64,000 nucleotides of DNA from Lytechinus pictus (lineage: Eukaryota). The stretch lies in assembly GCF_037042905.1 (NCBI RefSeq), contig NC_087250.1, positions 19,532,001 through 19,596,000 of the forward strand, in the 5' to 3' direction. A program made the translations under genes and the position numbers. The notes beneath the pieces were generated by a model. The model was not told the DNA's origin, searched no databases, and worked only from the letters and a program-made list of their open reading frames with translations. Positions 3,551 through 25,778 of the stretch are shown here, piece after piece. Position 1 is the stretch's first letter; the number at the start of each line of letters is the position of its first letter.

Positions 3551-4283
3551 ATACTTAGGCCTGTATACAGAAATCGAAAGAACATGAATGAGTAAGTTGC
3601 CAATTCGTCTCCTGCCAACTCGTCGACTCACCAAATGGTCTAATTTCACTTAGTCTTAATGCCATTCCATCCATCAACATTTGGTTTAACAGCAATTTGG
3701 TCCATTAACCATTTAGTACAATGGTCACTTCGTCTAATCACCATTTTGTCTATCACCATTTCGTCTTGTAACCGGTTCATTTTCATTCATTTTTCACAAT
3801 TGTACACTTAGTCCAATTAGACCAAATGGTATATGGATTTAATGGTTATTGGACCAACTGGAGCCTATTGCATAAAACTTTTTACCTGAGAAAACTCAGG
3901 TATTTTTTACTTGAGTTTTTGCCATGTGTTAAAGTCAATGGCAGAAATCAGACTAACCTTAGTTTTCAGTTTCTACCGGAGTTTTCTCGGGTAAAAAGTT
4001 TTATGCAACAGGCTGCTGGTTATAAGACGGAATGGCAGACTAAATGAAAGTAGACCATGTGTTGAGTGGACAAACTGGTGGTAGACCGATACTTAGACAA
4101 GTTTGCAATTGGATGAATTGGAAATAAACCCACCAATGGATGATGCTGGGCAAATTCCAGATACTGGTAAAACCAGTAATTTCAGATACAGTAAAACTTA
4201 TTTATTTTGACTTTTCATTGTTGACCTATCCTCTATTCCTTTTCATTCTATTCAGATGATGAAGGGTCAATGACCTACGAGCG

Positions 4284-4371
4284 ATGACAACATTGATTAC
4301 AGCTGAAAAGCTAGAATCAAAGCCAAGTGATGAAACTATTTTTTTAACCCAACCGGAAATTCAAACCAAAG
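4284..4371 (+). CDS. ZF gene coding exon 1 (MTTLITAEKLESKPSDETIFLTQPEIQTK)
   Basis: Acceptor at 4255, donor G|GTTAGT, phase 1 joins in frame to exon 5064. Confidence 0.65.
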
Positions 4372-7300
4372 GTTAGTGTGCCTTGATAATAAGCCATTTT
4401 ACAGGGGAAGTTTATTGTAAAAATAACATTAAAAATGAAATGGGTGAAGGTTTGAGGAAAATCCATTAAAGTTAAAAAAAAAGTAATTCAATTTTTTTTT
4501 GTGATGTCATATGCCAGTAGCTTTCCTTGTATTGTGAAGGAAAAGCAAAATTAATGAAATGTCATTTTCTCAAATAATTGAGAATGGTTCTTATTGACTT
4601 ACCAAGTACATCAACAGACAAATCATTTCACATCAGCTCCTGAAATAAAAACAAAATGTCATCGTGAACCATTAAAAGTTGGGAAATTCACACATTTTAT
4701 ATTGCGTAACATATGTGGCAGCTGCTGGTATATGACGTCACAAATGAAAATAAAAATAAAATTTGAATAACTTTCTTAATCTGATGGATTTTCCTCAAAC
4801 CTTCACCAAGGTCTTCCATCCTTAAAATAAGATTTTTAGATTTTATTCACTCTCGACCCCCTCTCGGGGATATGAGAGTACAACATATAAACAACATAAA
4901 ACAAACTATAGTAATGTGAAGAGATAAAGTGCTTTCCATCTTTAAAAAAAATGTGTATTGTTTTCTTAGATTGTAAAAAAGTCTTCAAAGTACTGATAAT
5001 AAAACGATTGCGTGCCATTTAATATCTTGTCACCATTCATATAATTTTTCTCCACCTCCCCAGAAGCTGAGCCCACTGTTCAACAGAATCCTAGCCCAAA
5101 TAAAGAGGAGATTTCGAAAGACAATTTCCCTCTACTGTCCTCAATAAAGGTTAAGTGTGGTGGCTGTGGAAAGGAGGCAGTGGTCCATGAGGACGACACG
5201 CCTTCGTATTTGACCGAATCCTACATCTGCGATATCTGCAAATCAAGAGCCCAGAAGAAGCTGCGCCTCCACCAACTCCTCAACGGCAAGGCGCCCTCTG
5301 AGGAACTAAAGCGGGTGGAACCGAAGCTGAAGCACCCGTGCCCGGACTGCGGTAAGGATTTCATCTCGCAGACCGATCTTAAAAGACACGCGAACATCCA
5401 TAGGGGATTGAAGCCGTTTTCTTGCGATACCTGCGGGAAGTCCTTCACGCAGACCTGTAGTCTGAAGCGCCACCTGTTGACGCACACCGACGTTAAACCA
5501 CACCATTGCGAGGTTTGTGGACTGAACTTCAAGGGCCATCTTGCCCGTCATATGAGAACCCATACGGGGGAGAAGCCATTCAAGTGCAAGATCTGCCGGA
5601 AAGGTTTTTACAAGAGTGAGCTTCTGAAGAAGCATCTGACGGAGCATATGAGAGACGGGAGTGTCACCTGTTCTAAAACACAGCTAGGTATTAGAGCTAG
5701 GGCTCATTGTTAGAGACTGTGCCTGCTTACATACATATCAGGGGCTGTTTCACAAAGAGTTAGATATGATTTAGAGTCGCACTTGAGTGCCGATGCGCAT
5801 TTATATGTGACACGCAATCTTATTGATTAATACGCATTAGTGCGCGTCCTCTTCGCATGATCTTACCAATGCCTTTTATAATGCATGCAACTAGGCATTT
5901 AAGTGCGACTCTAAGTCATACTCAACCCTATCTAGGCCGGGGGGGGGGGGGGCTTGGAGGCCCCCCCTCAACGATTCGCGCAATATCTTCGCCGTGCAAA
6001 ATTTTTTGACCACGCCGCTCAGTGACTTTTTACTTTCAAGTCTTGCGCAACTTTTGAGACCAATTTTACGTCACCCGGGTACGTGGTTCCAAAATTACGC
6101 AACATTATGTAAGTGCATGTCGGACCAAAAATTGCACAAAATGTAATTTTCAACTCAGTCTCAATTTGTTTAAATGTGAATAAGAAATTGTTAAACTTTA
6201 AATCTCAACACACACAAAATCTCACGGAGTTACCTCAAAATTTTCTCCTGCTGAGTGCAGCCTTTCTCAGCGATATGACCTGATTTGACGGAGGGTGATA
6301 CAAGCTTCCGAATGTCTATGACTCGATCATTGATCATTATGTTACCAAGGTCAAATCCGGTCACATCGCTGAGGGAGGCTCCTGTCAGAAGCTGAAAATT
6401 CTGAGATACAGTAACTCATGATTTTTGTGTGTTTTTAGATCAAAATTTTAACATTTTGTTATTTACCACCAATACAGATGAACTTATATGATTGTTTTGT
6501 TGTTCTTGTGTTTCCAGATGATATCGTTCAGAAGAACTTCAGCCATCAGCGAACCTGCTTGATCTGTGACAAGACTTACACCAGCCCCGGACACCTTGCC
6601 AGACACATGAAGCAACAACACAACAGTCAGAATGTCCTCAGGTGTGGTGTATGCACCGAGGTGTTCAGCGCCAAGGAAGCGCTGCAGGAACACCTTCAGG
6701 GCCACAGCAAGGAAGACCTGGCAGCAATCATCGCTGCCACATGTAAGATCATACACTTTGGGTGGTTTTATATTTGTGGTGTTATGTTTGTTTGGAGTAT
6801 TGCTGTAGTCAACGGGAATGGGGATAGATCCTGGGTTTTATTGAAATTATTTACTGGCAGATTTCCTTTTTATTGCAATAACTTGAGTACCATGAACCAT
6901 AGCAGATCTATTCAGGGAAGTTTCAATTTTAAATAATTAAGTGTTGTCATATTTTGCAGCCCTATTTATAACATCAATGGATTTTCTTGTTTGGTCACAT
7001 ATTGTTAAGATGAAAAGCAAGAGTTAACATACCATGGTACCCTTATGTCCAACTAAAAAAAAAAATAGTTACTTCATATAAAATGATTTGTAACTGATGG
7101 ATATTGTCTGGGGTAAAGCCTATATTAAGCTTTGGTTAGGAGTGACATGGCATTAAAGGCACATATGCTCAAGGGTTAAGTCTGAATTATATTTTATTCT
7201 GATATGTGCAATTCACTTTTTACTTTCTCTCTGTATTTTCAGTTGCCAACGCTACTGCATTGACCAACGGGATGCCTTCTGCTCCTGCTGATGAAGACGA

Positions 7301-10300
7301 GGCTGTTCCGGACGATGAAGAACCTCCGATAAAGGAGGAACCTTCCCCTGCAGCAAACACCCCAGATAATATGCTATCACAGGTAAGAGTAATTTTTCTT
7401 CTAACGGTGTTGATGATGATGATTATGAGGATGATGATGATGGTGATGATGATGAAGATGGTGGTGATGGCTATGATGATGATGATGATGATGATGAAGA
7501 TGATGATGGTGATAATGATAATGAAGATGAGGATTATAATGATGATGATGATGATGATGAAGAAGATGATGGTGATGATGAGGGTGATAGTGGTGATGAT
7601 GATGGTGATGGTAGTAATGATGATCACGATAATTGATGGCATTGAAAATGATGACTCTTCTTACTACATCTCACTTCACATATGTAGACAGAGGCTGCCA
7701 CTGTATCTTTGCTGTAGTGTTAATACCTCAGTCACATTTCGTCTACGGTGGCTGTATGGCAAGTTGAAACAGCCGTTATAACATTTTTTTATACCAGCCA
7801 CATATAGGCGGTTTGAATGAAAATGAATAAAATGGCTGTTTTCGACTTGCCGTACGGCCGCCGTTGGGGAAATGTGACTGAGGTATCAGCTATCTATTAT
7901 AAGCGATGGGTCTGATGCGGCGAAAGTGTAAAATATTTGTCTAGAGCACTCCTCGCATTTCCCCCTTCCTCTTTACTTGAGTCATTGTTTTCCTATCAAT
8001 AGATATCCATTGGTAGTTTGTACGAATAATCTGCAACAGAACAATCAGTTTAAAGAAAACAACAAGTAAACGACTGATTGAAGTCTCATTGTACAAGACA
8101 TATAACTCCTGTTTAGCATAACAGCAAAGTTATCACACCTCTGCCCAGATTACAGGCTAAACTTCACAATGAATTATTCTTATCATTTGCCATTACAGAG
8201 TTCAGTCCCAGAAGAACATGCTTGCCTTTAAGAACGTGTGTCCTTTGGGATCTGTTGCCATACATCTCACTTTACATGGAGAAAATAATCTTATCTGACT
8301 TTACAGAGTGCAGTCTCAGAAGAACATGCTTGCCTTGAAGATTTTGGTGACCTTTACGGATCTGTGGCCATGCCTGTTGCTGTACTAATTAAAACTCCAC
8401 ATGCAGGAAATAATCTTATCCTTGTCTGTCATTGCAGAGTGCAGTCCCAGAGGAACATGCTTGCCTTGATGATTGGGTGACCTGTGGGATCTGTGGCCAT
8501 GCCTGTTGCTGTACTAATTAAATCCCACATGGAGAAAATAATCTTATCCTTGTCTGTCATTGCAGAGTGCAGTCCCAGAGGAACATGCTTGCCTTGATGA
8601 TCGGGTGACCTGTGGGATCTGTGGCCATGCCTGTTGCTGTACTAATTAAAACTCCACATGCAGGAAATAATGTTATCCTTGTCTGTCATTGCAGAGTGCA
8701 GTCCCAGAGGAACATGCTTGCCTTGATGATCGGGTGACCTGTGGGATCTGTGGCCATGCCTGTTGCTGTACTAATTAAATCCCACATGGAGAAAATAATC
8801 TTATCCTTGTCTGTCATTGCAGAGTGCAGTCCCAGAGGAACATGCTTGCCTTGATGATCGGGTGACCTGTGGGATCTGTGGCCATGCCTGTTGCTGTACT
8901 AATTAAATCCCACATGGAGAAATTAATCTTATCCTTGTCTGTCATTGCAGAGTGCAGTCCCAGAGGAACATGCTTGCTTTGAAGATTTTGGTGACCTTTA
9001 CGGATCTGTGGCCATGCCTGTTGCTGTACTAATTAAATCCCACATGGAGAAATTAATCTTATCCTTGTCTGTCATTGCAGAGTGCAGTCCCAGAGGAACA
9101 TGCTTGCTTTGATGATCGGGTGACCTGTGGGATCTGTGGCCATGCCTGTTGCTGTACTAATTAAATCCCACATGGAGAAATTAATCTTATCCTTGTCTGT
9201 CATTGCAGAGTGCAGTCCCAGAGGAACATGCTTGCTTTGAAGATTTTGGTGACCTTTACGGATCTGTGGCCATGCCTGTTGCTGTACTAATTAAATCCCA
9301 CATGGAGAAATTAATCTTATCCTTGTCTGTCATTGCAGAGTGCAGTCCCAGAGGAACATGCTTGCCTTGATGATCGGGTGACCTGTGGGATCTGTGGCCA
9401 TGCCTGTTGCTGTACTAATTACATCCCACTTCACATGGTGAATCATGAAGAGACTATGATCCAATGCCGGTCATGTGGAATGGACTTTGCCCCAGCAGGC
9501 GTAAACAGAACATCTCAGGTGATGATAATTATAAACATCTTTTGGGCACTTGTATGGTGACACAACATTTGCTCCTGTGATAATTGCTATTGACCTAATT
9601 TTGTCTAAGATATAGGTTTAGGGTTGCAACAGGGTTTTATGTTAGGTTTTGGGTAAGGTTTAAGGTAGGGTTTAGTGTTTTAAGTCAGTTATTTGATTAG
9701 CATATAGAATTTATAGCCTAGTAATTGCCACTGGAGAAAACATCATGGAATCATTGGTGTAGCATAATCTATCTGGATACAATCTATTCCAAGGCAAACC
9801 ATTATGATTACACCAGCCTTCTAGTGCTTAGTGCTCTCAGGGAACTAATCCTGATAGGTACCCATTCGCCTTACCTGGTTAAAGTGCAGCACAATGTGGA
9901 TAAATTTCTGTACAGGGGCCTGTAACACAAAACTTAGCAATGATCGTAGAACATTTTTCTACGATTGCTTCCATTGACTACAATGTACAATCAATCGTGA
10001 AAATCAAGCGTACGATCAATTGCTAACCTTTGTGTTACGGGACCCTGGTCCCATTACACAAACTTTTAGAATCGATTGCTAAATTCAAACAACAACATTC
10101 ATTGGTTGATGATGTTTATGTTGTGCATTTTGATTGGCTAAAGCTATGTAGCAATTGATTCCAAACTCTTTCTGTCACAGGATACATGTCAGTTTCACTC
10201 TATCCAAGCTCTTAAATAGATCGTTAACAGGTGTTTGCGCAACATTTGAGCCTGTTCAGTGACTCCTTCCAAAATGCAGTCAATGGTTTTATGAATATCC

Positions 10301-13300
10301 ATCATTGTCTTGATGGTCAAATTTCATTCATGGCTCTACTCTGTTCATTATCCCCAGATCTGCAATGTGTGTAAACCGGAGCAGGCAGAAAGCGGTGCAG
10401 GAGCAGAACCCCAGAAGGAGGAAGCAGATGAAACAGACGTGCAAGACAATCTCCAGGACGATCTTCATGAATACGACGAGCTTGATAACGACGGCTCGGG
10501 AAAGAGATACCAATGTCTTCAGTGTGACAAGTCGTACAAGTTCCTGAAACACCTCAAAGAGCACGCCCGTGTCCACGCCGGTGGGTACCGACCGTACAAA
10601 TGCAATACCTGCGGCAAGTTCTTCTCTAAGAGATACCATCTGAATCGGCATCGACTGATCCACGCAAGAGTCGAAAGACAGCAGCAGGAGAACCAATCCG
10701 GCTCGCTCGGTGGAGTCGGTGCACCAAACCGGGGGAGAACCGGCAGGCCACCACTGAATACAGGGATGAGGGGTAGAATTGGGCGGCCACCAATGCATTC
10801 CACAGTGAAGGGGAGGATTGGGAGACCACCGTCGGATACCACAGTGAGGGGAAGAATTGGAAGGCCTCCTCTCTATTCAGGGATGAAGGGTAGAATTGGC
10901 AGACCTCCGCTGCATAGGGTGACTGAGGAGAGGGTTGATAGGCCGCCAGTGGAGACCACAGTGAAGGGGAGAATCGGCAGGCCTCCACTGCATAGTGTAA
11001 TTGAAGGGATTATCGACCGGCAGCCTTCGGAGACCCTGGAAAAGGCAACAGGTGGCAGGCTTCCAATGCATATCGTGGCGATCAAGCGGAAAGTCGGTAG
11101 CCCTCCGCTTTCGGAGAGCCTCCCAGAGCCGATCTTGGTCCAGCCAGCCGTTCCGGTCCAGGAGAACATGTATGCGATACCGAGACCACTGTCCAGGCAC
11201 ATGCCATTTGTGTGCTGCGCTTGTGGGAGAGGGTTTCCAAAGAGGGTTCCTTTGAAGCGTCATCTGTTGAATCACCTTCGGGAAGGTACCATCCCAAAGG
11301 ATCATCCGCAGCTCGGTAAGTTTGACTAAGTAATACACCACGGAATAATTTTCCTGGTATCGCATCGCAATATGCTCCACATTTTTTAAAGACTGGTACG
11401 CATTAAGTCTTTTGTATAGCATATTTTTACATAGGACTGTACATTACTTAGTTGAGGGCTTTTCTCTTATGACCAAAAATGCTATTCAAATTTGGAAGCA
11501 AAATTATTTCCTGCACCAATTTTGGCAATGGAGGGAGCCGATATTCAAACAAGAATTGTTAAAAGGAAGTCCTGGATATAAATCCTCATATCACATTCTG
11601 ATACCTATATTGAGATTTATCACTGGTGATTTTTCTCTGTTTACATCATAGAATCAGCCAATCAAAATGAATGATTTCAGGTGCTGTAAACTGTTATTGC
11701 AGATGTTATTCAATGGTATTCAGAATATAGTATTATTGATATCATTGTTTTCTTGTCTTTCTCAGATGAAATGAAGGTCAATTCCTACGTGAACGCAAAC
11801 GTAGGCGTTTCGCCGCAACTCCAGTCGTGTCCCGTATGTGGCAAGGTGTGTAAAGGGCTCCACCTCCAGCGCCACATGAAGATCCATTCAGATGACGAAA
11901 TCAAAAGGGCTAGAGACAGTAACCCAGGTGCGTCTCCGCAGCTCCAGAAGCAGCAGAGCAGTCCACAGCAGAGGGTGCCTATTGCAAATACTCATGCCGG
12001 AATTGTCTACATGAAAGGTAAAATAGAAACTACAGGGGTTCTATGATATTTGCTCCGGGGACAATTGCCCGAAATTTCACAAACAAACTGACTATATAAA
12101 TTCAACCCTGAATTTAGCATATCGCCATACCCTAAACCTAATCCGAAACCTAACAAAAAACACTACTGTATTGCATCCCTAACTCTAACCCTACATTTTA
12201 GACGAAATAAAGCCTTGAGCAATTGTCGTTGGAGCATATGTCCAGTGCCCCATACCATAGAGCTTAGCGGTAGATTGTGGGGCCTATCTTGACAATTGAA
12301 TGCATTGACTGTTGTGTGTGATCCATCGTCATAATCGGCCCATGATCGATTGCAAAGCTTTATGTTACATGGTCTTGGTTGTTCATACAATAACAGCTAA
12401 AATCAGTTTTACCCGAGAAGCAATCAATAGTAAGTTTGATCAAAATCAATTTGATGGATTCACAATACAGTGGGCCACCTATTGTTTGCAGCGGACAGGC
12501 CAATATTTGCATTGCCTTTTGGGAAAAAGTTGACATCTGTTTTGCGCTCTTGTGCATGCATGCGGTATGCTGCACTGGCCGACCCGATTTGGCCGGCTTG
12601 CATAAAAATTATGCTCTTTACCTGGGTCCAGGAGGTGGGAGAGAAATTTGCTGCATATTTATTGGCGAAATCTAGACCATTTTCGTTGAGCTCTTCCTCC
12701 GCTTTTGCCATATGGTTTACATTTATGAAGCATCACAGTCACATTACAGCACACAAGCATTGTGCGCTTGGGTTGCGGATGGAGGACGCACTGAATCAGG
12801 CAAGGAGGAGGGAGTGGACATGGGCAGTTGCTGTGAGTGTGAGGTGAATCTGGCCACCCCAGTTCACCGGGACAAACCGGAATTAAAACTTTGAATTGAT
12901 GATGATGTCATTATGAATATTGCCTAACTGGATATTAGACAAAGTGACCCGTATTCTGAAGTCAGGACCATGGTCTAAATCTGTGCTGAAATTATGGGAA
13001 ACCAAACATGTCAGAATCATGTTTACCTTGTATGCTACTCATGTTTACTTTGCTCTTCTAATACTTTTACTGGTGAAGACAACTGTCTTCTTTATCCTTC
13101 CCAGTATAGTTCAGAATGATTTGAGAGTCAAATGAGCTGATACATTTGACCTCTACTGCTTACAGATTTGTGTCACAGCTGGCTTTTCATAGTTTAAACA
13201 CAGTGGCTCGTATTCTGAACTCGGGTTTAAATTACCCTGGTTTAAAGTGCTGGTTTGAATATGGAGAGCCAATTGGGACACAAATCCCTAACAGTACACA

Positions 13301-16300
13301 TCCAATTTATTAACTCATATGACACCCAAATTGCCTGGGAATGATCATTAAAGTATTTTGATGTATTTTTCTTCATTATTTAAGCAAAAGGAAACAAATT
13401 AGTAAACATAAGAAATATACAATATAAACAATATTAGAATTTTAGGCTCCCCATAATTTTAGCACAGACTTAGACCATGGTCTAAGTTAAACCTGACTTC
13501 AGAATACAGGCCAGTGAAACCAGAGTTTAAATTAAACCTGACTTCAGAATACGGGCCAGTGTGTTTCTAGACCAAGTGGTTATACATACTGCAGTCATAC
13601 CTTTAATCAAAATTATATCTATTTCAGATGAAGCCCCCGAATCTCCTGATAGTGATGATTTCAATGAAGGAGACTTGGACCATTTTGGTAACGATGGTAA
13701 ATAGCCTTGATTCTTCTTTACTTTTTGCATTATTATAAAATAGTGATAGGAATCCTCATCAAATGATTGTTGAAAAATCTCTCGAAATGACAAATCAGTA
13801 ATGCTTATAAGTAAATTTGCTAATGACTGTTAATTGCAACTAGTTCCCTGGAGATGAGGATCAAATAATACAATCGCACATTACTATCTTATAAAACATG
13901 TTTTTCTTAACGTTTTTGCTTGGGCATACACTTGTTTTTGAAATAATACAAAAGAACTTGGCTATGCTTCGGGCATGTTGACAGTGTTCCAAATGTGCCT
14001 TGTATGTGTGATCCTTACTAATGCCCTCGACGATGTGTATTATTTTTTGTATTCTTCCAGATCCAATGCCAATGTCAATTGACAATATCCTGAATCTTGG
14101 TCAGCCGGAGCCTGAGGTTGTGAAGGAGCATGAATGTCTTGACGACCAGGTGAATTGTGGGATATGCGGACACAGCTGCTGCTGTGCAAACTACATAACG
14201 TTCCACATGGAGATTCACAATGAGGAATCTGACACATGCGGCAAGTGTGGGAAGGAATTGGGTGACCTTCCAGCCACTCGAGTTCAAGGTGGACGCATCT
14301 GCAGCATTTGCACTTCCCGCTCAAGGAAACAGATGCGCCTCCATCAGATTCTCCGCAACAAGGTCTTGCCTCCTGATTCGCCAGTCAGTGAATCGACGCC
14401 GCAGCGGTTGGAGTGTCCACAATGTCCAAAGAGCTTTGTGGATCGCCGGTCCTTCCGGGAGCATCTTCGCATCCATTCAGGCGAGAAGCGCTACCACTGC
14501 TCCTTCTGTGGAATGGCGTTCTCGCACAGCCGCAACTTCAAGCGTCACATCCAGAGGCACACTGGCGAGAAGCCCAACTGGTGCCATATCTGCAATAAGG
14601 GTATCTCAGGACACCTTGCCAGGCACATGCGGAGCCACTCTACAGAGAAGAGCTATGTCTGCAACATGTGTGGTAAGGGATTCAACCGCTCAGAACATCT
14701 CAAGAGGCACCTGAAGACACACCTTGGCACGAAAGAGGAGTACCAGTGCCATATCTGCGCAAAGAAGTTCATGCGAAAGGAGCACTTGAAGCGACATGTG
14801 AAGTCTCACATGGATGGTTCTCTTGGATCAGAGGGAGATGCTACATCTACTGAAGCAAGTCCAGGTAAGATGAAGCTACACCAACGTTCTTGTGTGACCA
14901 GGGTCGTGTAATGCAAAATACAGTGCTTAATTTTACGATTGATTTTCATGCTGATGGTACACTGTGTTTTTCTTTTGTGAAAAAGTGTCCTACGATCAAT
15001 CCTAAATCTGTGTGTTATTAGGCAATGGAGGTGGTTTCATGAAGGGACACTGTTGGCACCAAATTAAGTTTGAGATTAATTTCCATGGGACCTTGGTTAG
15101 TTGGATTGGGATATACTAAGTAGTTGATAATATATGGGTCATTTAATATAGGCTGTCAAGGTAGATTTCCTGTCAGAAACACATGGAGTTCTAAATTCTA
15201 AGAGGCAAGATATCAGTGACTTTGTATCTTTCGTTCGTTGACAAATGTCACAATATTTTGATTTTTTTATTTGTTTGTCAGAAGTTTGTCATATCCTGCA
15301 GCCCGATTACATGTATCTCAGTTTTTGGATGCACACGCATCAGAATATAATATACAATATAGGAAGCGCTAGTTGCTTTATGGATTATATACAGTATCAC
15401 CATTCCAATCCCCATTTCATACATTTAATCACAAGCAAGTTATCATCAAAAAGTTCTTTGTCAGTCTTTATCTACACCAAGGAAAACAATTAAAAAATGA
15501 CCAACAAAGGGCCATTGAAAATCATAGACGACAGCTTTGAACAAACTGGAGTCGTTTTTGTTTGTTTGACTGTATTTGGCATTACATAGCTTGTGATATT
15601 GATTGCTGTTTATATTTACCTTGTTCTTGATGTACAGTAAAACCTGTGCGTCCACCGGTGAATGATCAGCCCTACAAGGAACATCCCTGCACCTACGACG
15701 TTGCTGTGTGCGGTCTTTGTGGTGACGTCTGTTGTTGTGCCAACTACATTCCCTATCACATGGAAGTGCATGGAGAAAAGGCCGAAGACTACATCGATGG
15801 GCGTCTAGTCAAGAAAGAAGTCGCACCCATGCAATGTGGCAATGGAGGAAAGACAGTCAGGGAGCACTCCTGCACCTTCGATCCTGTCTCCTGTGGCCAC
15901 TGCGGAGAGGTTTGCTGCTGTGCAAACTACATACCCATACACATGGATCTTCATGGAGAGAAACCAACCGACTTTGCCAAAGACCAGATCCTCAAGAATG
16001 TCAGAGAAGAAGTCCAGATAAAGGTTGATGAACGGATACCAGAGGAAGCCCCTGAATCGCCTAAGGAACAATTGGAAGATCACCCGTGCTTGGGAGAAAA
16101 GGTTGTCTGTGGTATTAGTGGTGAGACATTCTGCTGTGCCAACTACATTGCGCTATACATGGTGAAGCACACCAAGCAGGCTGCAGAGACAAGAGGAGAG
16201 GATCATCCTGATGATATCCTTGAGAAAGCTCTTCATGCTTCTGAAATTATTGGCGATGTCAAACCACACCCTTGTACTCACGAAATAGTTAGTTGTGGGG

Positions 16301-19300
16301 TCTGTGGAGAGCCATGCTGTTGCCCAAATTACATTCCTTTCCATATGGAGCTGCACCGTGAAATCTTGGACCAGGAGACAGTCGTCCAAGAGGAGGTTGT
16401 GGGCGTTGCCGATGAAGTAATACCCATGAAAGAAGAAGCTCATGAAGCTGATACTACAGGTATGATTAGATACAGGTTACTTTGCCAAAGTGAAATCTTT
16501 TGGACCACAAACATTTGTTTGACTGGGAGAAATTTGACTTACAAGAAATATATATACTGGTGAGTAAAAAAAAAAATGACACCTCACAAATCCCCAATTT
16601 AAGGGAAAAGTATGTCATGCACACATAATTATTATATATGGCCTGAAAGAGTATGTTTTCCCAAATAATATGATACCATATTTATGTGGTATGTGTTAAT
16701 GCTTGGATGATCAGGAGGTATTCTTTGCAGTGATGTAAATTTTGATTTTTGCCAAAGTAAGGCATGACTGCAAAGAATGAATCTATATGTCTATGATGCC
16801 ATGATCCTACAACGGTTGCAATAACATGCATTTCAGAACACTTTTGCAATAATTTACATTATAATTGTTTGATAAACACTTTTTAGTATCAATTCTGAAA
16901 TCAATTTCATTAAAAAAGGGATTTGCAAACATATTTACTAACTCATGTAGGATTATGACGTCAATGGCATCTGGATTCATTCATTGCAGTCATGCCTTAC
17001 TTTGGCGCAAGTCAAAATTCACATCACTGCAAAGAATACCTAATGATTATCCAAGCGTTAACACATACCAAATGAATATGGTATCAAATTAATTGGGAGA
17101 AGATACTACAGCCATATATACCGTATTTTCCGGTATATAAACCGCGGCCGTGTATAAACCGCACCCCCAATTTTTGACTCTTGGAAAAAAAAAATTAAAA
17201 AAATTGAGGAAACCAGAAATAGTGAAATCTGTGTAATATTCTATATATTTGAAGGAATATCTTCATGCATTCTCCGTGATACTGAAGCAATAAAATATAC
17301 GAAAAGATATTATTTGTTCGATGCAAAGTGTTTTCACTTCGACAATTTTGACGCAATTATCTCGCTCATGCAATACACAGCGATAATGCCTGTACCGTAC
17401 CGGTACGTGGTGCTGAGTCTATGGGCAGCTGCCGGCTGCCCCGAGCTCTGCCTCTGGTACGTCCAAAGTGATTCGTCCTGATGTATGAATTTTGCATAAA
17501 TACTCATAAAACAGACTTATTACCTGTTGACGACGAATTGGGATTGTGTTTACTTAAGCAACTCAACACCATCACATGACCAAATAATTTGAGAACGGAC
17601 TGTTGGCCGAGCGAGACGAGCAGTCACGTCGGCTTTTAACTTTTTTTTTCTGAGCATACATGGAGGGAGCGCATGCGCGTTGCTCGTGAGTCGCCGCAGC
17701 CAGGGGGGGGGGGATGGGAAGGGACGATCGGGCATTGCATCTTGCATTGATATTAAGTTGTTTTTTTAAATGAGAAAAATGATGTGATGTGGATGTGGAT
17801 GAAATACAATTTTACAAAGTAACAAATACAAAGTTCTCCATTGCTGCAAAAGCAATCAATACCGGTAGATGGCGCTTCAACACGTACAGTCTTCAAGTTT
17901 AGTTAGCTGCACATTAGAAAGGCCTCGAGCAAGATTTGTTTCTTTCTGGGATTTTTCTTATTTTTGGTTTGGAAAAGCGATAGTAGGCAGCTTTAAAATT
18001 TAGTGCCCTACTGTTCAGTATTAGAGGTATGACATTAGCTGTCAATTACACTAGCAGATCGGTCAAACAGAAGAGGGTAAAATCTTAACTACGTCTACGG
18101 TACTGCGCGACGCTCCGCCTTCAGTTTCCCTGTCGCTAGGCTGCGGCGCGCCCAGCGCCGGCCAGCCATGCCAGCAGGCACTGGCAGGCGCTACCGAGGA
18201 GCGCTTACCGAACATGGATTGGCCGTCTCGCGAACACCACGACAAAAATCATTAAATTATGAAAAGAGAAAGACAGAGATGATGTAAAGTGAGTTTTATT
18301 TCATTCTTTTTACAAGTCCACGTTTCAAACATGTCACACATATGCTAAATTTTCATCAAGTCAATCAAGTTTCTGAGGTCGGATTTCTCTGTGTTCGTGT
18401 ATAAACCGCACCCCCCATTTTCGAGGTTTTCCCCGACAGAAAAAGGTGCGGTTAATACACCGGAAAATACGGTAATGATGCGTTCATGACAGATCTTTTT
18501 CCTTAAAATGGGGATTTGTGAGGTGTCATTTTTTTTTTACTCCCAAGGTATGAATTACATGTTTCGCTTAATCTGGTCTGAAAATACTGCTTGGACTTGG
18601 GAAATAAACACATGTTTACCCATATTAGGTCAAACCTTGTTCTATCGCTTGTAGAGACAATTGAAAACATACATTGTTTCAATTTTCTTGCCAAGTCATC
18701 CACGCAACATCGCGGAACTGCTTTTCATCACAAAAGATGGCTGCGTAACCTTGAAACGGGTGCCTGGTCTTAAAATTTGCATTGCCTTTGCCCTTTGGCT
18801 ATTTTTCAACAGAGAGAAGATTGACTTATTGAGATTTCTACTTTTTTTCATAATATCTGTAGGTGAGGTCCAAGATGTCCCAGCTACTGTTGCTGACGAA
18901 GCTGTTGAAGCCCCAGAGGGTGTTGAAGCACCAAGAGCAGTGACAGCATCAGAGACCGCCGAGGTTGTGAATAATGGTAGTGCACGTGCAGTGGTAGAAG
19001 AACATGCGGAAGAGTTTGACTGGGCCAGTGTCGCCAATTTCCTCCAGGGAATCCCTGAGCCAGGTATGTGGTGAGGGCGGTAGGGGGAATCCTATGAGAA
19101 ATGTTAGACTAGAAGCTTATTTTGCCTCCGCAAAATGAATCTGCCGGACTTTAACAAAACTCTAATATATGTTGTGTGATTTATATATAAAGACACTGGC
19201 AATGCTGTGGCTTGACTTACTTCTTTGAAAATGCTGACTTCCTTACCAATATCAGATATTAAATTTCTGAAATATCCTAGTTCACGTTGGCAGCTCTGCT

Positions 19301-22300
19301 CGCAACTCATTTCTGTTCCTTAGTCAGTGTAAGGCAGAAGTCATCCTGCTTTCTTCTACGGGATGTTTATTAACGTGTGAAACGGTAAATTGCCAATTCG
19401 TCTATTGCCAAATCATCCACTCACCATTTGGTGTACTTTCATTTAGTCTAATGCCATTCCGTCCATCAACATTTCATCTAACAACCATTTGGTCCAATCA
19501 TCAATTCATCTAATCACCATTTCTTCTCACACCCAGTCGGTCTAATATCCATTTCATTTTCATTTATTTTGCACAATTTACATTTACCGGTAGTCCAATT
19601 AGACCAAATGGTATATGGATTAAATGTCTATTGGACCAACTGGTTATTAGACAAAATGGTGAGTGGACAAATTGGCAATTAGACCGTGTGGATAGTTGAC
19701 AAACTGATAGTAGACCAAATGATAATAGACAAGTTGGCATTTGGATGAATTGGCATTAGACGAATTGGAAATTAACCTGTGAAATTAGTGAATAGAGTTT
19801 AATTCCAAAATTGTATGACTCTTGATGCCAGGCTGCTTCATTATGTGATGCAACTTGACATAAATATTTTAAGGGATACTCATACCTGCCAACCATTCCG
19901 ATTTTGGCGGAATTATACCGATTTTTTAGCCTCCATTCCGAATTCCGAATTTTTAAACCGAAATTCCGATTTTTGGGTCAATCAATATAGTGTTGAAATT
20001 ATTGAAACGGCTGTATGATGCGACTAACGCATAAGCGGCTGTAACATACGACTAACGCATAAACAACTGGAGCGCACGGCTAAGTGCTAAGTGCACAGTT
20101 CCATTGCAATTGCATGTGAAAATTACGAGCAGCGCGCGGCCGATATTAGCGTTGACTTCCGGAACAAAATGGCGGCTGACATCGGCTCGCGAAAGTGCCA
20201 GTTTTCAGTGAGGACACGTTTTCAAAATCCACGAACATCGGAAAAACCGTGAAAAATTCACTTTTTTAGACCCCTTGTTTCCTAACTACGATGTATAGAA
20301 TTAACGATGGTGATATTTTTGACGCGAAATATGGTGATTTAGTAAGAAAATTTCACTTTTTATTCGAGGTTTTGCCCTTTTCGCCGGATGATTTTGTATT
20401 GTGGAATGAGTTAGTGAATGAGTCGTGTTTTGGTGTCTAGAGTGTGTTGGTAATATCATTGATGAGTCTGCTGACCGGCTGCTTAAATTACCCGGCCGCT
20501 CGGCCGGCCGCGCCGTGCACATGGGGAGGCTCTGCTGCAGTTACTCAAGTTAGATCTATCCCTACGCAATGTTAAAATTGATCTGTACTTTATTTTTTCG
20601 AATAATTGTCAAATTTGTGAGAAAGAAAGGAAATTATCAACTTTCGAGTCAAGTTGAGCCATCGGAGCTGAACGCCAAATCTACTTGCTTCGCTTGCCTA
20701 AACTCCCGGCGCCCGAGTTGCTGCGCCTCAGCCTCCCAGTCTCACCGGCGCACCGCAAGTGCAGTGGTGGTTGCGGGTCGGGCGTATGCCGCCGTAAGCT
20801 TCGGCTCCGTTTTTGTCATGGCTGAAAATCTGCTTTCTTATGCCAACAAGCACTTATCTAATAAAGTTTATGATATAACCTTGTCCTCAGTCACTACTCC
20901 TGTGTGGTGAAATATAAACATGAATAAGATGACAATGTTTGGCTTATTTTGATGCATATGATAGACTTGATATAAATGATAAATAAATGTTAGATTTTTT
21001 TGCACTCAGTTTTTAATACAGTAGGCCAACTTGAATCTGAATTAATGATACAAAATATCCCTTGGCCCAAAACTCAATTGTATTCTTGAAATTATTTTTT
21101 TTCTGATTAAAAAGAGAATCTTTCCAGAAACTTTCCAACAATAGAGGGCATCACAATTTATTAAAAAATTAAATTATTCCTAAGTCTATATAGATTTCAA
21201 TGAAAACAAATCACACCTGAATGAAACTGGGTGTATTTTTTGTCACAAACGTGATATCTTCAAGACCTTTGTTTTAATGTTTAATTGACAAATGATATTA
21301 TATTACATATAAGTAGACTAACGTTACATGTAGGTCATCCTGTAGGTCATCCTGTGGTATGGTAAATAGGGTAAATTTGCTTTAAAAGGGGTAGAGAAAT
21401 GCTAATTTTACATGCAGAAAATGCAGAGTCCCTACCATGGGAGGGGGAAACCATCTCGCGTGCGACCCGTTCGGGGCCCTCGTGGCTTTGATACTGATTT
21501 TTTATTATCAAAGGTTGGCAGGTATGGATACTATGTTTTGAAAAGGACACTTGCGTTTGAGGTGGCGGGCCATGGGGGAAAGGGGGCGAAGACATGGCGA
21601 AGCAAGTGATGGAGGCAAGTAGGAATAATTGGTTGAGGGACGAGGTTGCACTGAATGGTCACACGTTTTCTGCGGGCTTTATTTCTTCTTATAAGACATA
21701 GGGTTAGGTTTGCAATAGGGTTTTATGTTAGGTTTAGGATAGGGTATGGTGGTCTATCCAGGGTTGAAGTTGGCCATTCCATTAATGTGTGGAATTTGCA
21801 GCGGAGCAATTGTCGCCGGAGCATATGTCATGGAACTGCACTGAATAGAGTAAAATAGAGGGAGGGGATGAGGGTGATTACTGTGAGATCGCTCTGATTT
21901 TCCTGTTTTTGCAGCAGCGAATTACAAAGTTCAACACATTTTTGTCTCACCTGCATAGCAGAGTGAGACTATAGGCGCCGCTTTTCCGACGGCGACGGCG
22001 GCGTCAACACCAAATCTTAACCTGAGGTTAAGTTTTTGAAATGACAGCATAACTTAGAAAGTATATGGACCTAGTTCATGAAACTTGGCCATAAGGTTAA
22101 TCAAGTATTACTGAACATCCTGCCTGAGTTTCATGTCACATGACCAAGGTCAAAGGTCATTTAGGGTCAATGAACTTAGACCATGTTGGGGGAATCAACA
22201 TCAAAATCTTAACCTAAGGTTAAGTTTTTGAAATGTCATCATAAATTAGAAAATATATGGACCTAGTTCATGAAACTTATACATAAGGTTAATCAAGTAT

Positions 22301-25300
22301 CACTGAACATCCTGCATGAGTTTCACGACACATGACCAAGGTCAAAGGTCATTTAGGGTCAATGAACTTTGGCCGAATTGGGGGTATCTGTTGAATTACC
22401 ATCATAACTTTGAAAGTTTATGGATCTGATTCATGAAACTTGGACATAATAGTAATCAAGTATTACTGAACATCCTGTGCAAGTTTCAGGTCACATAATC
22501 AAGGTCAAAGGTCATTTAGGGTCAATGAACTTTGGCCAAATTGGGGTATTTGTTGAATTACAGCCATAAATTTGAAAGTGTGTTGGTCTAGTTCATAAAA
22601 CTTGGACATAAGAGTAATCAAGTATCACTGAACATCCTGTGCGAGTTTCAGGTCACATGATCAAGGTCAAAGGTCATGTAAGGTCAAAGAACTTTGGCCA
22701 CGTTGGGGGTATTTGTTGAATTGCCATCATATCTCTATAAGTGTATTGGTCTAATTCATAAAACGTGGAAATACGAGTAACCAAGTATCACTGAACATCT
22801 TGTGCGAGTTATAGTAGTTTTCAAAATCAGCACTGCTGCTATATTGAATCGCGCGATGCAGGTGAGACGGCCAGAGGCATTCCACTTGTTTTTTTTTGTC
22901 TTTCCTTCTGTTTTTGCTTTCGTGAATTGATTTTGATAATTCTGTTTCTCTTTTTTTTCCATTTTCCATTTTCTGAATGGAAGCCTTCCCACTGATGTTA
23001 TTTATTTCTTATGTGTTTAATTTTGTTTCTTCATACTGTTCACATATTTTCTGAACAGTTAAAAGTGACATTCTTGAGTTTATTTCTTCTGTAGATCCAT
23101 TACCTGTTCCTCCGCCCATGGCCACCGTAACCAACGTTGAACCTTTGAACGGATCACCAGTGAAGGTGGAACCTTCCCAGGTTCAAGTCCAAGAGAGTCA
23201 GGTGGATGATCATATATGTCTTCAAGCTCAGGTGACCTGTGAAACCTGCGGCCATGTCCTGTGCTGCATCAACAACCTCATCCCTCACCTCGACACCCAC
23301 AAGGTCATGACCGTACAGTGTGAGGTGTGCCACCAGGAAGTAGAGATGACCAGGACTGCCACAGTAATGAAAGATGGCGTGAAGATCTACAAGTGCGGTG
23401 CCTGCGTGATGGGCCTGCCAACGATGCCATCAAGGTCCTCCAGACCTGCACAGGTAAGAGATTCCGAAGGAGGTCCCACACCGAGTAAGAATATCCCTTG
23501 TCCGCACTGCCCCAGGGTGTTGAAGTGCCGCAAGGATTACACCAGGCATATCAAGATCCATGCGGAAGTCAAGCCGTACAAGTGTGACATCTGCGGCAAG
23601 GAGTTCACAGCTATGGCCAACTTGAGGCGTCACCTGGATGCGCATGCTGGGGTGAAGGCGCATGAATGCACGATCTGCGGGCAGTTCTTCAGCGGACACA
23701 TGGCCCGTCATATGAGGACACACACCGGGGAGAAGAAATACAACTGCGAGATCTGTCCCAAGGGTTTCAATCGAATGGAGCATCTGAAGAGGCACCTGTG
23801 GCAACATCTCAAGGATGGCAATGCCCCAAGCGATCATAAACAGCTACGTGAGTAAGATTACCCAGGCTTCCATCTACCCCTTCCCACAATCCCTTGCCCT
23901 AGTAACTGTATCGAGCTTGAACTGTCTCAGAGTCTGTAGGTTTTGCATTCATGTAGCTTTAGTCCGCGTGTGCTTCACGGTGGTGTCTTTTGGTTTGGCA
24001 ACATAGTGACTTCTTGAGACCTGACGAAAAAGTTTGTGCATCTGTGTTGCTTTGGCTGGCATATGCTTCCAGGTGAAAACGTTATTGCAACAGTCACACC
24101 AACGAATCCGACTCCAAACTGACCGATGGTATTCCAATCAAAATAACGTAATATCTTTGATCGGTCTGTGTTGGTGTGACTGCGGTGTGACGCTCTATGT
24201 TGTTCAAGTTATTAGTTGAAGATTTTGCAGCATGGTGTTCTTCAAGGTAACATTGTGGGCCCTCTTTTACAAAGGTACAATTTAAGTCATGGCTTTGACC
24301 AGTGGTCCAACCAATGTTTGGTTGGCAGGTATGGTACAAAACTTGAATTGAAAATACATGCTTGCTCCATCATTAGCTTTTCTGTTTTTACAAAAGATTA
24401 TTTACAGATGTCTAGGAGTCATGATTGCAAATAATTTTTCTTGAAATCTGTAGAAACAGTTGTGACGACTGGCTTTCCCTACCCAAACCACAAACTTAAA
24501 AATCTTGTTTGAATAATTATACCCTTGTCAAGATGGGCCTCCATTGGCCTGTAGCACCAAGAAGTACGATGGGTTGTAAATGTGAAAGAACAAATCTGGT
24601 TGGTTCCTGGTCAATGGTTTGAACAAGATACACATGCAACAATGATTTTGATTGGTTAGTGTCATGTTGTGATTTGATGACATTTCTTTTGTGTTACAGG
24701 GTACCGTTCTGCCAGCCTGGTTGATGTTTGATACTAATACTCTAGATTTTATTGCACTAACTATTGTATTATTTTGCATGCTACTTTCTGTATTAAGCTT
24801 TTACTATTTGTCGTAACAGCCTCTTCATTGCTGATGTTTTTTACTTGACATAAAATGTGATATACCTGAACATACCATCAAACCCGTGAGACATTTTTAA
24901 AGAAGAAACTGGACAAATATTTGGACAAAAACACACTAAAATAAAATAGACAATGTGTTATAGTCGTCAATTTCTTTGAAGAAATTATGATTTAACATGA
25001 TTGTCCATAATTATCAATTATTATTGGAATGTATGAAGAGATTTTCATTTTCTATTACTAAAGCGGTTAATTAGTTTAATTTCTATCATGTATTTGAATG
25101 ATCATTCATTCATATTCTACGTTTTTCCTTTTTTTTTAATATGAGGTGACAAATCAGTGCCTTTGTTGATTTGTTTTTCAATCAGATAGTGCATTGGTCA
25201 ATGGATACTGATTGGTGTTAAAAAAACCTCTAAAAAATTCATGAATGGTCCCATTTCTGGAAATGTCTTTGAAATTTTTGCTATTTCTTGGCTGTCCGGA

Positions 25301-25778
25301 TCAGCAGGTATGACACACCTATGAAAAATAAGAAAGCTACTTCAGGGAAGTATTTCATTAAAGGACATGTTGGACGTAGAATCCCACGACAGTTACCGTA
25401 GTAACGTTGCATCTCAGCCAATCAAATTCAAAGCAAGTTGTCAGATGAAACATGTTGATGAAATGCTACTCTTGCCCAAGTTCAGTAATTGATTGATTGC
25501 CTATTTTCTTTTTCTTCTCAGTCGAACTAGGCGTAACAAGGGACAATGCCCAGCCAAGTGAAACCTCCCCGTCAAAGAGCAACTGGTGCGACATCTGTCA
25601 CAAGATCGTCCCCGGTCGTCTGGCCAGGCATAAGATGACTCACAGTGACGTGAAACCGTACCAGTGCACCCAGTGCGACAAGGCTTTCTACCGATCGGAA
25701 CATCTGAAGCGCCATCTGGAGGTTCACGCCAGGAAGGCGCAATTTACTGGGCTGCTGCCGACAGAGGCAACGGCATGA
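4284..25778 (+). CDS. Large multi-zinc-finger protein (about 1790 aa), 13 coding exons: 4284-4371, 5064-5687, 6518-6742, 7243-7382, 9339-9518, 10358-11315, 11766-12017, 13628-13696, 14061-14864, 15638-16459, 18863-19063, 23095-23847, 25522-25778
   Basis: All introns are GT-AG with matching phases. Summed exon length is 5373 nt (1790 codons plus TGA). About 21 C2H2 fingers with TGEKP-type linkers. The first coding exon and the 13696 donor (alternative 13687) are less certain. Confidence 0.85.
5064..5687 (+). CDS. ZF gene exon: C4 module plus 4 C2H2 fingers
   Basis: CCCCAG| acceptor, G|GTATTA donor; fingers CPDC, CDTC, CEVC, CKIC. Confidence 0.92.
6518..6742 (+). CDS. ZF gene exon: 2 C2H2 fingers
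   Basis: TTTCCAG| acceptor, T|GTAAGA donor; CLIC..H, CGVC..H. Confidence 0.88.
7243..7382 (+). CDS. ZF gene exon: acidic/proline linker
   Basis: TTTTCAG| acceptor, CAG|GTAAGA donor; PADEDEAVPDDEEPPIKEEP. Confidence 0.85.
7410..7640. repeat. Imperfect (ATG)n microsatellite
   Basis: Direct reading; intronic. Confidence 0.95.
8165..9440 (+). repeat. Tandem array of 10 copies (period about 128-131 bp, first 108 bp) of intron 3' end plus exon 5' part
   Basis: Acceptor-like CAG|AGT(G)CAGTC(C)CAGA with exon starts at 8199, 8307, 8438, 8566, 8695, 8823, 8951, 9081, 9209 and 9339. Confidence 0.95.
9339..9518 (+). CDS. ZF gene exon: atypical CCC finger plus first half of a C4 module
   Basis: The last and only open copy of the tandem array; CAG|GTGATG donor, phase 0. 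Confidence 0.85.
10358..11315 (+). CDS. ZF gene exon: 3 C2H2 fingers and GRIGRPP repeats
   Basis: CCCCAG| acceptor, G|GTAAGT donor; lies in ORF 10310-11329. Confidence 0.92.
11766..12017 (+). CDS. ZF gene exon: 1 C2H2-like finger
   Basis: CTCAG| acceptor, G|GTAAAA donor; CPVCGKVCKGLHLQRHMKIH. Confidence 0.85.
13628..13696 (+). CDS. ZF gene short acidic exon
   Basis: TTTCAG| acceptor; DEAPESPDSDDFNEGDLDHFGND; phase 1-1. Confidence 0.7.
14061..14864 (+). CDS. ZF gene exon: CCC finger, C4 module, 5 C2H2 fingers
   Basis: TTCCAG| acceptor, G|GTAAGA donor. Confidence 0.93.
15638..16459 (+). CDS. ZF gene exon: four atypical CCC fingers
   Basis: TACAG| acceptor, G|GTATGA donor; lies in ORF 15646-16563. 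Confidence 0.9.
16557..18548. mobile_element. Outer long-TIR MITE interrupted by a second element
   Basis: GAGTAAAAAAAAAAATGACACCTCACAAATCCCC is mirrored by GGGGATTTGTGAGGTGTCATTTTTTTTTTACTC. Confidence 0.75.
17121..18472. mobile_element. Tc1/mariner (pogo/Tc2-type) non-autonomous element, TA TSD
   Basis: TA|CCGTATTTTCCGGT...ACCGGAAAATACGG|TA; repeated TATAAACCGCA motifs. Confidence 0.85.
18863..19063 (+). CDS. ZF gene exon: acidic Ala/Val/Glu-rich linker ending EEFDWASVANFL
   Basis: TGTAG| acceptor, G|GTATGT donor, phase 1-1. Confidence 0.82.
19384..19777. mobile_element. MITE with GG termini and 8-bp TSD (Merlin-like); relatives at about 3590-4130 (interrupted by a MITE at about 3862-4015) and about 57513-57900
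   Basis: GGTAAATTGCCAATTCGTC / GACGAATTGGAAATTAACC; flanks TGTGAAAC/TGTGAAAT. Confidence 0.75.
19881..21526. mobile_element. Non-autonomous DNA transposon with 6-bp TSD (hAT-related)
   Basis: CATACCTGCCAACC / GGTTGGCAGGTATG TIR; GATACT on both sides. Confidence 0.85.
21939..22890 (+). mobile_element. Helentron-associated (HINE/DINE-1/Tsp-like) element with internal 163-191 bp tandem repeats; degenerate reverse copy at about 35775-36170
   Basis: Subterminal IR GTCTCACCTGC / GCAGGTGAGAC, T-rich insertion site, 3' ACTTGTT end, about 4.5 internal repeats containing GGTCAAAGGTCA. Confidence 0.8.
23095..23847 (+). CDS. ZF gene exon: CCC-like finger, C4 module, 4 C2H2 fingers
   Basis: TGTAG| acceptor, C|GTGAGT donor. 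Confidence 0.92.
25522..25778 (+). CDS. ZF gene terminal exon: 2 C2H2 fingers and stop
   Basis: TTCTCAG| acceptor, TGA at 25776-25778. Confidence 0.88.

Follow-up and report, generated by a model that had tools for sequence, protein, structure and literature searches.

We analysed a 64,000-nucleotide stretch of Lytechinus pictus DNA (hereafter the window) that contains, on its forward strand, a 13-exon gene, LOC129263179, encoding a multi-module C2H2 zinc-finger protein of 1790 residues (Table 1). This protein carries seven copies of a variant finger in which the C2H2 core is combined with an upstream HxC and a pair of adjacent cysteines, and all seven belong to this single protein. A six-frame scan of the window finds the motif seven times, always on the forward strand, and a hidden Markov model (HMM) built from the seven copies detects no eighth complete one in the window's six frames. 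The pattern HxC-x6-C-x2-[CS]-x4-CC, which occurs seven times in the 1790-residue model, was never found in 20,000 shuffles of it, a comparison in which the copies do not count as seven independent events since they are paralogues. The original prediction, made from the DNA letters, had counted seven copies, one of them degenerate, and all were located on the forward strand within the range it gave. The C-x2-C-x12-H-x3-H spacing that it ascribed to the core was found in six of the seven window copies and in all seven copies of Strongylocentrotus purpuratus. The longer pattern that it put forward, with three consecutive cysteines followed by N-Y-I, is exact in five copies and fails in copies 5 and 7: the first of the three cysteines is F in copy 5 and L in copy 7, and the latter reads N-N-L.

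The 1790-residue frame is free of internal stops, and the gene model is identical to the RefSeq protein XP_063956533.1 ('uncharacterized') over the first 371 and the last 1432 residues, the RefSeq protein departing from it only in extra pieces taken from an intronic tandem array (see below). Stranded RNA reads were mapped to positions 9330-21900, where two RNA runs cover the coding-exon bins on one strand only (0 versus 25.8 and 26.8 on the two strands for bin 14370-14789, and 0 versus 21.6-35 for bin 15630-16469). A contig from run X1 joins 10732-11314, 11765-12015, 14060-14861 and 15635-16154 without any mismatch, and leaves 70 bases unplaced, in keeping with the length of exon 8 (69 bases). 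As this contig spans exons 6-10, copies 2-4 lie on one transcript. Joins were taken from contig pieces because splice-joint tables were swamped by repeats at 85% likeness; the exon joins outside the contig are based on splice signals and orthologue models. Orthologues with seven copies each are present in Lytechinus variegatus (XP_041467247.1, 92% identity) and in S. purpuratus (XP_003723908.2, 62% identity).

To describe the finger, we number its residues from the first knuckle cysteine (position 1), and conservation refers to 21 copies, seven from each of the three species. H-9, C-7, C1, C9, C10 and N12 are invariant in 21/21 copies, while C4 is kept in 19, H17 in 20 and H21 in 20, every exception being a Lytechinus copy 5. 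In S. purpuratus, whose seven intact paralogues share 30-80% identity (mean 56%), the invariant columns are exactly eight Cys/His and one Asn. The invariant Cys/His residues form four half-sites, in the order HxC, CxxC, CC and HxxxH. The invariant HxC and CC, and the count of four extra Cys/His, that had been read from the window are thus borne out, exactly four extra residues being invariant over the whole set; their conservation in orthologues, which had been proposed as a check, holds for the seven copies of L. variegatus and the seven of S. purpuratus. For comparison, we used 775 background fingers drawn from the matches of the motif HMM and hence biased towards the motif: C9 and C10 occur together in none of them, and H-9 and C-7 together in one.

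The first cysteine of the CCC run (position 8), which comes on top of the conserved pair, is of a different kind. It is C in 16 of the 21 copies, L in three and F in two, and the same position is F in 89% of the background fingers; because it varies and corresponds to the ordinary Phe position, we assign it to the hydrophobic core and not to the ligands. This bears on the proposal that the factor is switched through CC/CCC, acting either as a vicinal disulfide or as a labile metal site, i.e. that the finger is a redox or metal sensor, a reading that we consider highly improbable. The three adjacent cysteines in those 16 copies speak for it, and a His/Cys site with adjacent cysteines could, we infer, be weaker than a canonical site; but the position-8 cysteine is freely swapped for L or F, a constant set of four ligands is more simply explained as structural, and no result points to sensing. 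The variability of position 8 also matters to a second alternative, namely that the variant is a single-zinc C2H2 finger whose extra Cys/His are conserved for packing, folding or a protein interface. The replacement of Phe by Cys at position 8 shows that cysteine is usable for packing here, the zinc-finger fold matches described below are single-zinc fingers that cover mostly the core, and only seven paralogue lineages were sampled. Against it, the packing positions (8, 14, 18 and -2) vary across copies whereas the four extra residues are constant in all of them, and four residues make up a full tetrahedral set, in alternating order. We regard a single-zinc finger as unlikely, albeit deserving serious consideration.

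Copy 5 offers another view of the four extra residues. Its loss of C2H2 ligands is restricted to Lytechinus, the S. purpuratus copy being intact: C4>S is common to both Lytechinus species, with a further H17>Y in L. pictus and H21>Q in L. variegatus. The degenerate copy had been described as having lost two C2H2 ligands while keeping HxC and CC, and C4>S and H17>Y are those two losses. The X1 contig includes the serine and stops before the tyrosine, so that H17>Y rests on the assembly. Compared with S. purpuratus, L. pictus copy 5 is changed at 14 of the 26 other positions (3-8 of 26 in the remaining copies) and all four extra residues are kept; the chance of all four surviving would be about (12/26)^4 = 0.045, assuming uniform rates.

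The variant finger is also poor in basic residues. Its 21-residue core contains no K/R in six of the seven copies and one in copy 5, compared to 1-7 in the canonical fingers of the same protein (15 fingers listed), and its net charge ranges from 0 to -2, i.e. neutral to acidic. C9 and C10 occupy helix positions -2 and -1, and helix positions -1, 2, 3 and 6 read C, N, Y and a hydrophobic residue in six copies, and C, N, N and P in copy 7. The polar or basic DNA-reading helix residues and the basic surface by which a classical C2H2 finger is defined are therefore lacking. The absence of basic DNA-contact residues had been noted originally, together with two suggested functions: protein interaction, which this loss makes plausible, and metal or redox sensing, which nothing supports. 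In copies 3 and 4 the last His is still followed by GEK(P), and classical fingers are the closest PDB sequences (ZNF268, E 0.005). These relic linkers and nearest neighbours point to the descent of the variant from a Krüppel-type C2H2 finger, as far as can be read from sequence.

We modelled copy 2 with AlphaFold2 using an alignment of the seven copies (the folding alignments were shallow, with 7-8 rows and window copies only). The mean predicted local distance difference test score (pLDDT) is 80.3, with 91 over residues 11-30, which form a confidently predicted ββα core, and 76 (moderate confidence) over residues 1-10, the N-terminal arm that holds the HxC. Foldseek returned no match at E<=0.001 among 136, most of them being C2H2 cores superposed at about 1 Å over 22-27 columns. 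One of its matches was to SWR1 (9b1d_D, E 4.3, 24 columns), a chain that may be a HIT subunit. In VIA, the best match was the Pol eta UBZ (3wup, Z 3.9, 1.3 Å over 31 residues), followed by the RAD18 UBZ (5vf0, Z 3.7, 1.3 Å over 35) and a tied Kazal domain (3.5); zf-HIT, MYND and B-box entries were absent among the VIA matches listed for this 45-residue model (Z<=3.9). The Kazal family, a secreted disulfide fold, matched residues 1-40 at Z 2.6-3.5 with 3-11% identity and was rejected; at most, these matches hint that the arm of the model folds back onto the core.

Two further readings are best weighed against this model. Because the two top VIA matches are UBZ fingers, the variant could be a UBZ-like ubiquitin-binding finger, whatever its metal count, and the string of copies could read ubiquitin chains on chromatin. 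Like the UBZs of Pol eta (UBZ3), RAD18 (UBZ4) and FAAP20 (UBZ2), it is an isolated finger, predicted as ββα, without DNA-binding residues and with an acidic residue two positions after the first His: position 19 is acidic in 16/21 copies, compared to 1.4% of the 775 background fingers. The UBZ2/UBZ3 helix motif, described as D(-4)-A(0)-L(+3) (PMC4267625), is not found, however: there is no central Ala, position 23 being E in 15/21 copies and A in 0/21. The last ligand is His in 20/21 copies and not the Cys of UBZ4 (CCHC), the HxC and CC are additional, and the Z scores are tied with that of the unrelated Kazal domain. We consider this reading very unlikely. The other possibility is that the second zinc lies between chains or copies, the HxC of one finger and the CC of another forming a clasp that dimerises the protein or strings its fingers together. 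The two half-sites are separated, the copies of exon 10 are tandem and stand-alone, and isolated C2H2 fingers are described as self-associating (10.1101/2025.09.04.674178). Nonetheless, in the model a monomer suffices for the HxC arm to be ordered, and the spacer from C-7 to C1 is six residues in 21/21 copies, which fits an intramolecular loop; a clasp between fingers is in our view quite unlikely.

Table 1. Features of the L. pictus gene and of its surroundings (window positions; residue numbering of the finger as in the text)
Feature	Position	Strand	Remarks
13-exon gene, 1790-residue multi-module C2H2 protein, LOC129263179	4256..25778	+	AG/GT boundaries, open frame
Exons 1-4	4256-4371, 5064-5687, 6518-6742, 7243-7382	+	
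Exons 5-8	9339-9518, 10358-11315, 11766-12017, 13628-13696	+	
Exons 9-13	14061-14864, 15638-16459, 18863-19063, 23095-23847, 25522-25778	+	
Variant finger copy 1	9357..9446	+	exon 5; the C4 module behind it is divided between exons 5 and 6
Variant finger copy 2	14129..14218	+	exon 9; copy used for folding
Variant finger copy 3	15682..15771	+	exon 10, stand-alone, relic GEK linker
Variant finger copy 4	15865..15954	+	exon 10, stand-alone, relic GEKP linker
Variant finger copy 5	16081..16170	+	degenerate (C4>S, H17>Y); HxC and CC retained; intact in S. purpuratus
Variant finger copy 6	16267..16356	+	exon 10, stand-alone
Variant finger copy 7	23211..23300	+	exon 12; most divergent paralogue
C4 module (CxxC-x17-CxxC and long helix) after copy 2	14237..14360	+	predicted treble clef, best fold matches ZAD
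C4 module near the N-terminus	5156..5287	+	paralogous, without a variant finger ahead; 47% identical to the copy-2 module
C4 module after copy 1	9465..10372	+	exon 5 holds the first Cys pair, the beginning of exon 6 the second
C4 module after copy 7	23319..23402	+	without the RLHQ helix motif
Five DNA-type C2H2 fingers	14414..14809	+	one shortened
Further C2H2 arrays or single fingers	5339-5647, 6556-6705, 10514-10663, 11213-11275, 23499-23807, last exon to 25727	+	
Tandem array of nine ~128-bp units	8199..9338	+	intronic; each unit contains the acceptor of exon 5 together with the 5' half of copy 1

Copies 1, 2 and 7 are each followed, six residues downstream, by a CxxC-x(14-21)-CxxC module (C4 module), of which the original prediction makes no mention, and each C4 module stands ahead of ordinary basic C2H2 fingers. 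An 85-residue model of the finger and the C4 module (mean pLDDT 75.2, predicted template modelling score 0.40) shows a hairpin and a 19-residue helix (65-83). When the C4 module was searched in VIA, ZADs held five of the top eight ranks, and five ZADs superposed at 1.7-2.1 Å over 43-46 residues, with low Z; for the Grauzone ZAD (1pzw), Z was 4.7 at 1.7 Å over 45 residues. Since the Z scores for ZADs tie with those for the ClpX zinc-binding domain and CsfB, the safe reading is a treble clef with a long helix. The 45 aligned residues are spread across Grauzone 2-74, leaving some 28 residues of the Grauzone ZAD without counterpart, and the C4 modules match neither zf-AD nor any other Pfam family at cut-off; we therefore call the module ZAD-like and not a ZAD. 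A complex prediction with two copies of the 85-residue segment and zinc, run without an alignment, scored 0.00 with an uncertain fold and weighs neither way.

Elsewhere in the protein, shortened fingers (C-x2-C-x9/10-H-x3-H, with the helix start G-[HR]-[LM]-A-R-H) are located at model residues 178, 1020, 1646 and 1728; they lie in exons 2, 9, 12 and 13, one per main array, and are kept in the orthologues, and a similar finger lies near 11827. Positions 10740-10990 encode six GRPP repeats, mostly with a 13-residue period (11 in S. purpuratus, mostly with a 7-residue period), which resemble AT-hook cores and may add minor-groove DNA binding.

The tandem array upstream of copy 1, which is absent from the original prediction, consists of nine truncated half-copies: five are terminated by TAA at codon Tyr13, the frame is shifted in three, and an early stop cuts one short. 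Six bases at the junction between units recur in both exon and intron, suggesting that the units arose by microhomology-driven duplication. The RefSeq models of both Lytechinus species contain pieces of such repeats. In intron 11, a stretch at 19830-21510 has a stranded RNA coverage of about 18-43 (runs X22 and X23) and no long forward frame; it may represent an alternative 3' end or start, or else a non-coding exon. The frames at 53366-54375, which include a Lys-rich acidic segment, are probably exons of an unrelated neighbouring gene. In S. purpuratus, two contigs, of 2.4 Mb and 52.4 Mb, carry near-identical proteins, owing to a haplotype duplicate or to recent copying of the gene, and the automated names of the S. 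purpuratus proteins (Xfin, ZNF729) carry no information.

Named carriers of the variant finger were detected only in the sea-urchin genera Lytechinus and Strongylocentrotus. A search for exon 10 homologues at near length gave 0/320 candidates. On longer proteins, the motif profile matched 5/491 at E<=1, namely the L. variegatus and S. purpuratus clusters and three ordinary C2H2 arrays, and the C4-module profile matched 3/77 (the same two species' clusters plus a close relative, P0143), the module being met with in orthologues of this gene only. An HMM search of 1.84 billion representatives yielded 119 matches, of which one, an exon-12 orthologue fragment (P0038), has the full motif. As this search missed known full-length orthologues, it tests the narrow range only weakly; note that the homologue searches depend on shared five-residue words or on cluster representatives. 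No relatives appeared in viral contigs (0/49 pattern matches) or in metagenome contigs (0/26), a search of sequencing runs listed no carrier recorded as RNA, and the ESM Atlas returned generic clusters with recognition scores below the mark. The first finger of a C2H2 array in Salpingoeca helianthica (P0111 / P0121), one of the 775 background fingers, has H-9, C-7, V-2, C9 and Y13 but T10; its three of the four extra residues may reflect chance or an older form. An ENA protein (P0064, a single member) has at about residues 270-302 a finger with an upstream HxC, a longer spacer and a CC after the knuckle, but its second Cys and first His are separated by 11 residues. The C2H2 genes of S. purpuratus are reportedly catalogued by Materna and colleagues (2006). 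No description of the variant finger or of its gene was found in the literature searched, subscription literature being beyond its scope; Table S7 of 10.1101/2025.09.04.674178 (extended C2H2 domains in 27 proteomes), which also lay outside that scope, could list this protein.

Pfam does not name the variant either: none of the seven copies matches PF00096 at E<=10, none reaches the cut-off of any Pfam family, and the exon-10 frame matches 0 families. The finger resembles PF00096 in its C2H2 spacing, hydrophobic positions 8 and 14, predicted ββα fold and relic GEK(P), and differs from it by the absence of basic recognition residues, the CC at helix -2/-1, the upstream HxC and the acidic position 19. 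In B-box and ZZ domains the third half-site is of the CxxC type; it is an adjacent CC here, and no copy has a B-box or ZZ match in Pfam. TRAF-like and FYVE-like readings, suggested by the patterns of those families, were dropped, as no copy has any such Pfam match. Siva matched copy 7 below cut-off (E 0.038, 14.1 versus 26.2 bits). A further sub-threshold match aligned residues 12-26 of copy 7 to positions 12-26 of zf-HIT without gaps (E 1.8). In the numbering of the zf-HIT profile, C9 would fall on the site-A Cys and C10 on the Ser equivalent to S31 of ZNHIT3 (see below), which we treat as a lead only.

How, then, would the variant finger work? Cross-braced fingers follow a simple rule, in that ligands 1, 2, 5 and 6 bind one zinc and ligands 3, 4, 7 and 8 the other (PMC7614390). 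The four half-sites of the variant alternate as they do in the cross-braced zf-HIT and MYND fingers, which makes a second zinc, bound by HxC and CC, likely. We propose that the variant is a Krüppel-type finger whose four extra Cys/His bind a second zinc in cross-braced fashion and that it serves as a protein-docking module, a reading that, judged from sequence, we hold to be moderately probable. The ordinary ligands C1, C4, H17 and H21 would coordinate zinc B, and zinc A would be coordinated by H-9 and C-7, from the N-terminal arm, together with C9 and C10, at the strand/helix junction. Sitting at helix -2/-1, where a DNA-binding finger places a base-reading residue, C9 and C10 would, with a comparable degree of probability, join the HxC arm in completing the site, on the side by which an ordinary finger faces DNA. 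In copies 1, 2 and 7, the variant finger is followed by the predicted ZAD-like treble clef and then by a DNA-type array, and copies 3-6 form a stand-alone string in exon 10. With such cassette-plus-array units in series, the protein would be a multi-array transcription or chromatin-architecture factor, to which the variant fingers may supply multivalent contacts with themselves or with cofactors.

Several observations weigh against a cross-braced second site. The 21 copies come from three related species and amount to about seven paralogue lineages, not 21 independent tests, and the retention argument drawn from copy 5 is weakened by the fact that Cys and His evolve slowly anyway. There is no significant fold match, and the zinc-finger matches cover mostly the core, from residue 8-13 on. 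The zf-HIT match reaches 8.8 bits against a cut-off of 24.7, in one of ten queries, and was obtained with the 86-residue query and not with the 45-residue one. A zinc is less commonly bound by a pair of neighbouring cysteines than by CxxC, and the HxC and CC half-sites differ from the CxxC and Cx3C of HIT and MYND. All this notwithstanding, the interleaved two-metal finger first suggested for this sequence remains the best reading, given the invariance of the extra residues, their alternating order and the HIT/MYND precedent; its second zinc is still deduced from sequence.

That precedent is instructive. The second site of the cross-braced HIT and MYND fingers resembles a C2H2 finger (PMC4999995, Kaur and Subramanian), and zf-HIT (CCCC-CCHC) is described as a cross-braced, protein-binding finger without a basic patch, whose binding to RUVBL2 has been documented (PMC5460035). 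In ZNHIT3, one zinc site is bound directly by C14 and engaged indirectly by S31 (PMC9418376). The variant finger shares with these families eight putative ligands in four alternating half-sites, a C2H2-like site, the absence of a basic patch and, probably, a protein-binding role. Its last pair is HH where theirs is HC, and its set, HC-CC-CC-HH, departs from that of zf-HIT. The MYND spacing differs as well: with the DEAF-1 ligands reported as C515, C518, C524, C528, H536 and C540 (PMC3555993), the stretch from the third Cys to the last ligand spans 26 residues, compared to 21 in the variant. Most likely, then, the variant would work like a cross-braced HIT/MYND finger without belonging to those families, and since Krüppel fingers are its closest neighbours in sequence, the resemblance probably arose by convergence. 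The original statement that it is not a recognized family thus stands with respect to Pfam, the PDB and the literature, and has to be amended in that the topology deduced for it is of an already known kind.

Known factors also provide a comparison for the arrangement of the modules. In Diptera, isolated C2H2 fingers with an N-terminal extension can dimerise, and the 'CGEx'-type IMZF fingers are, like the variant, isolated C2H2 fingers with a conserved N-terminal extension in array-bearing factors (10.1101/2025.09.04.674178). The analogy is functional only. In the IMZF fingers a CGEx β-strand precedes the core, the accessible part of that source mentioning no second zinc, whereas the extension of the variant is HxC-x6 in 21/21 copies and its CGE letters are the knuckle itself. 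ZADs are described as treble clefs that homodimerise via their helices (PMC7913770, PMC12649048). The C4 module resembles them in its four cysteines, predicted treble clef with a long C-terminal helix and position ahead of C2H2 arrays; it differs in that only 14-21 residues separate the Cys pairs, and in that it is internal and occurs four times. Although the scope is that of one gene, detected in two genera, these features point to an unannotated non-DNA-binding module, made of the variant finger and a minimal ZAD-like clef, that belongs to a C2H2 factor from a standard model of development. The variant would give a small testable case of a Krüppel finger gaining a HIT/MYND-type second site, with an unusual ligand set (HxC and adjacent CC) and the half-decayed copy 5 as a natural control. 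A bolder scenario, which we put forward tentatively and with some doubt, is that a Krüppel finger independently became a cross-braced two-zinc domain, by means of an HxC arm and a Cys-Cys pair at the former DNA-reading positions, and, with the minimal ZAD-like clef, a sea-urchin self-association effector cassette placed before DNA-binding arrays. If so, it would represent a living transition from C2H2 to a HIT-like finger, and the cassette would be the counterpart of the insect ZAD or of the vertebrate SCAN and KRAB.

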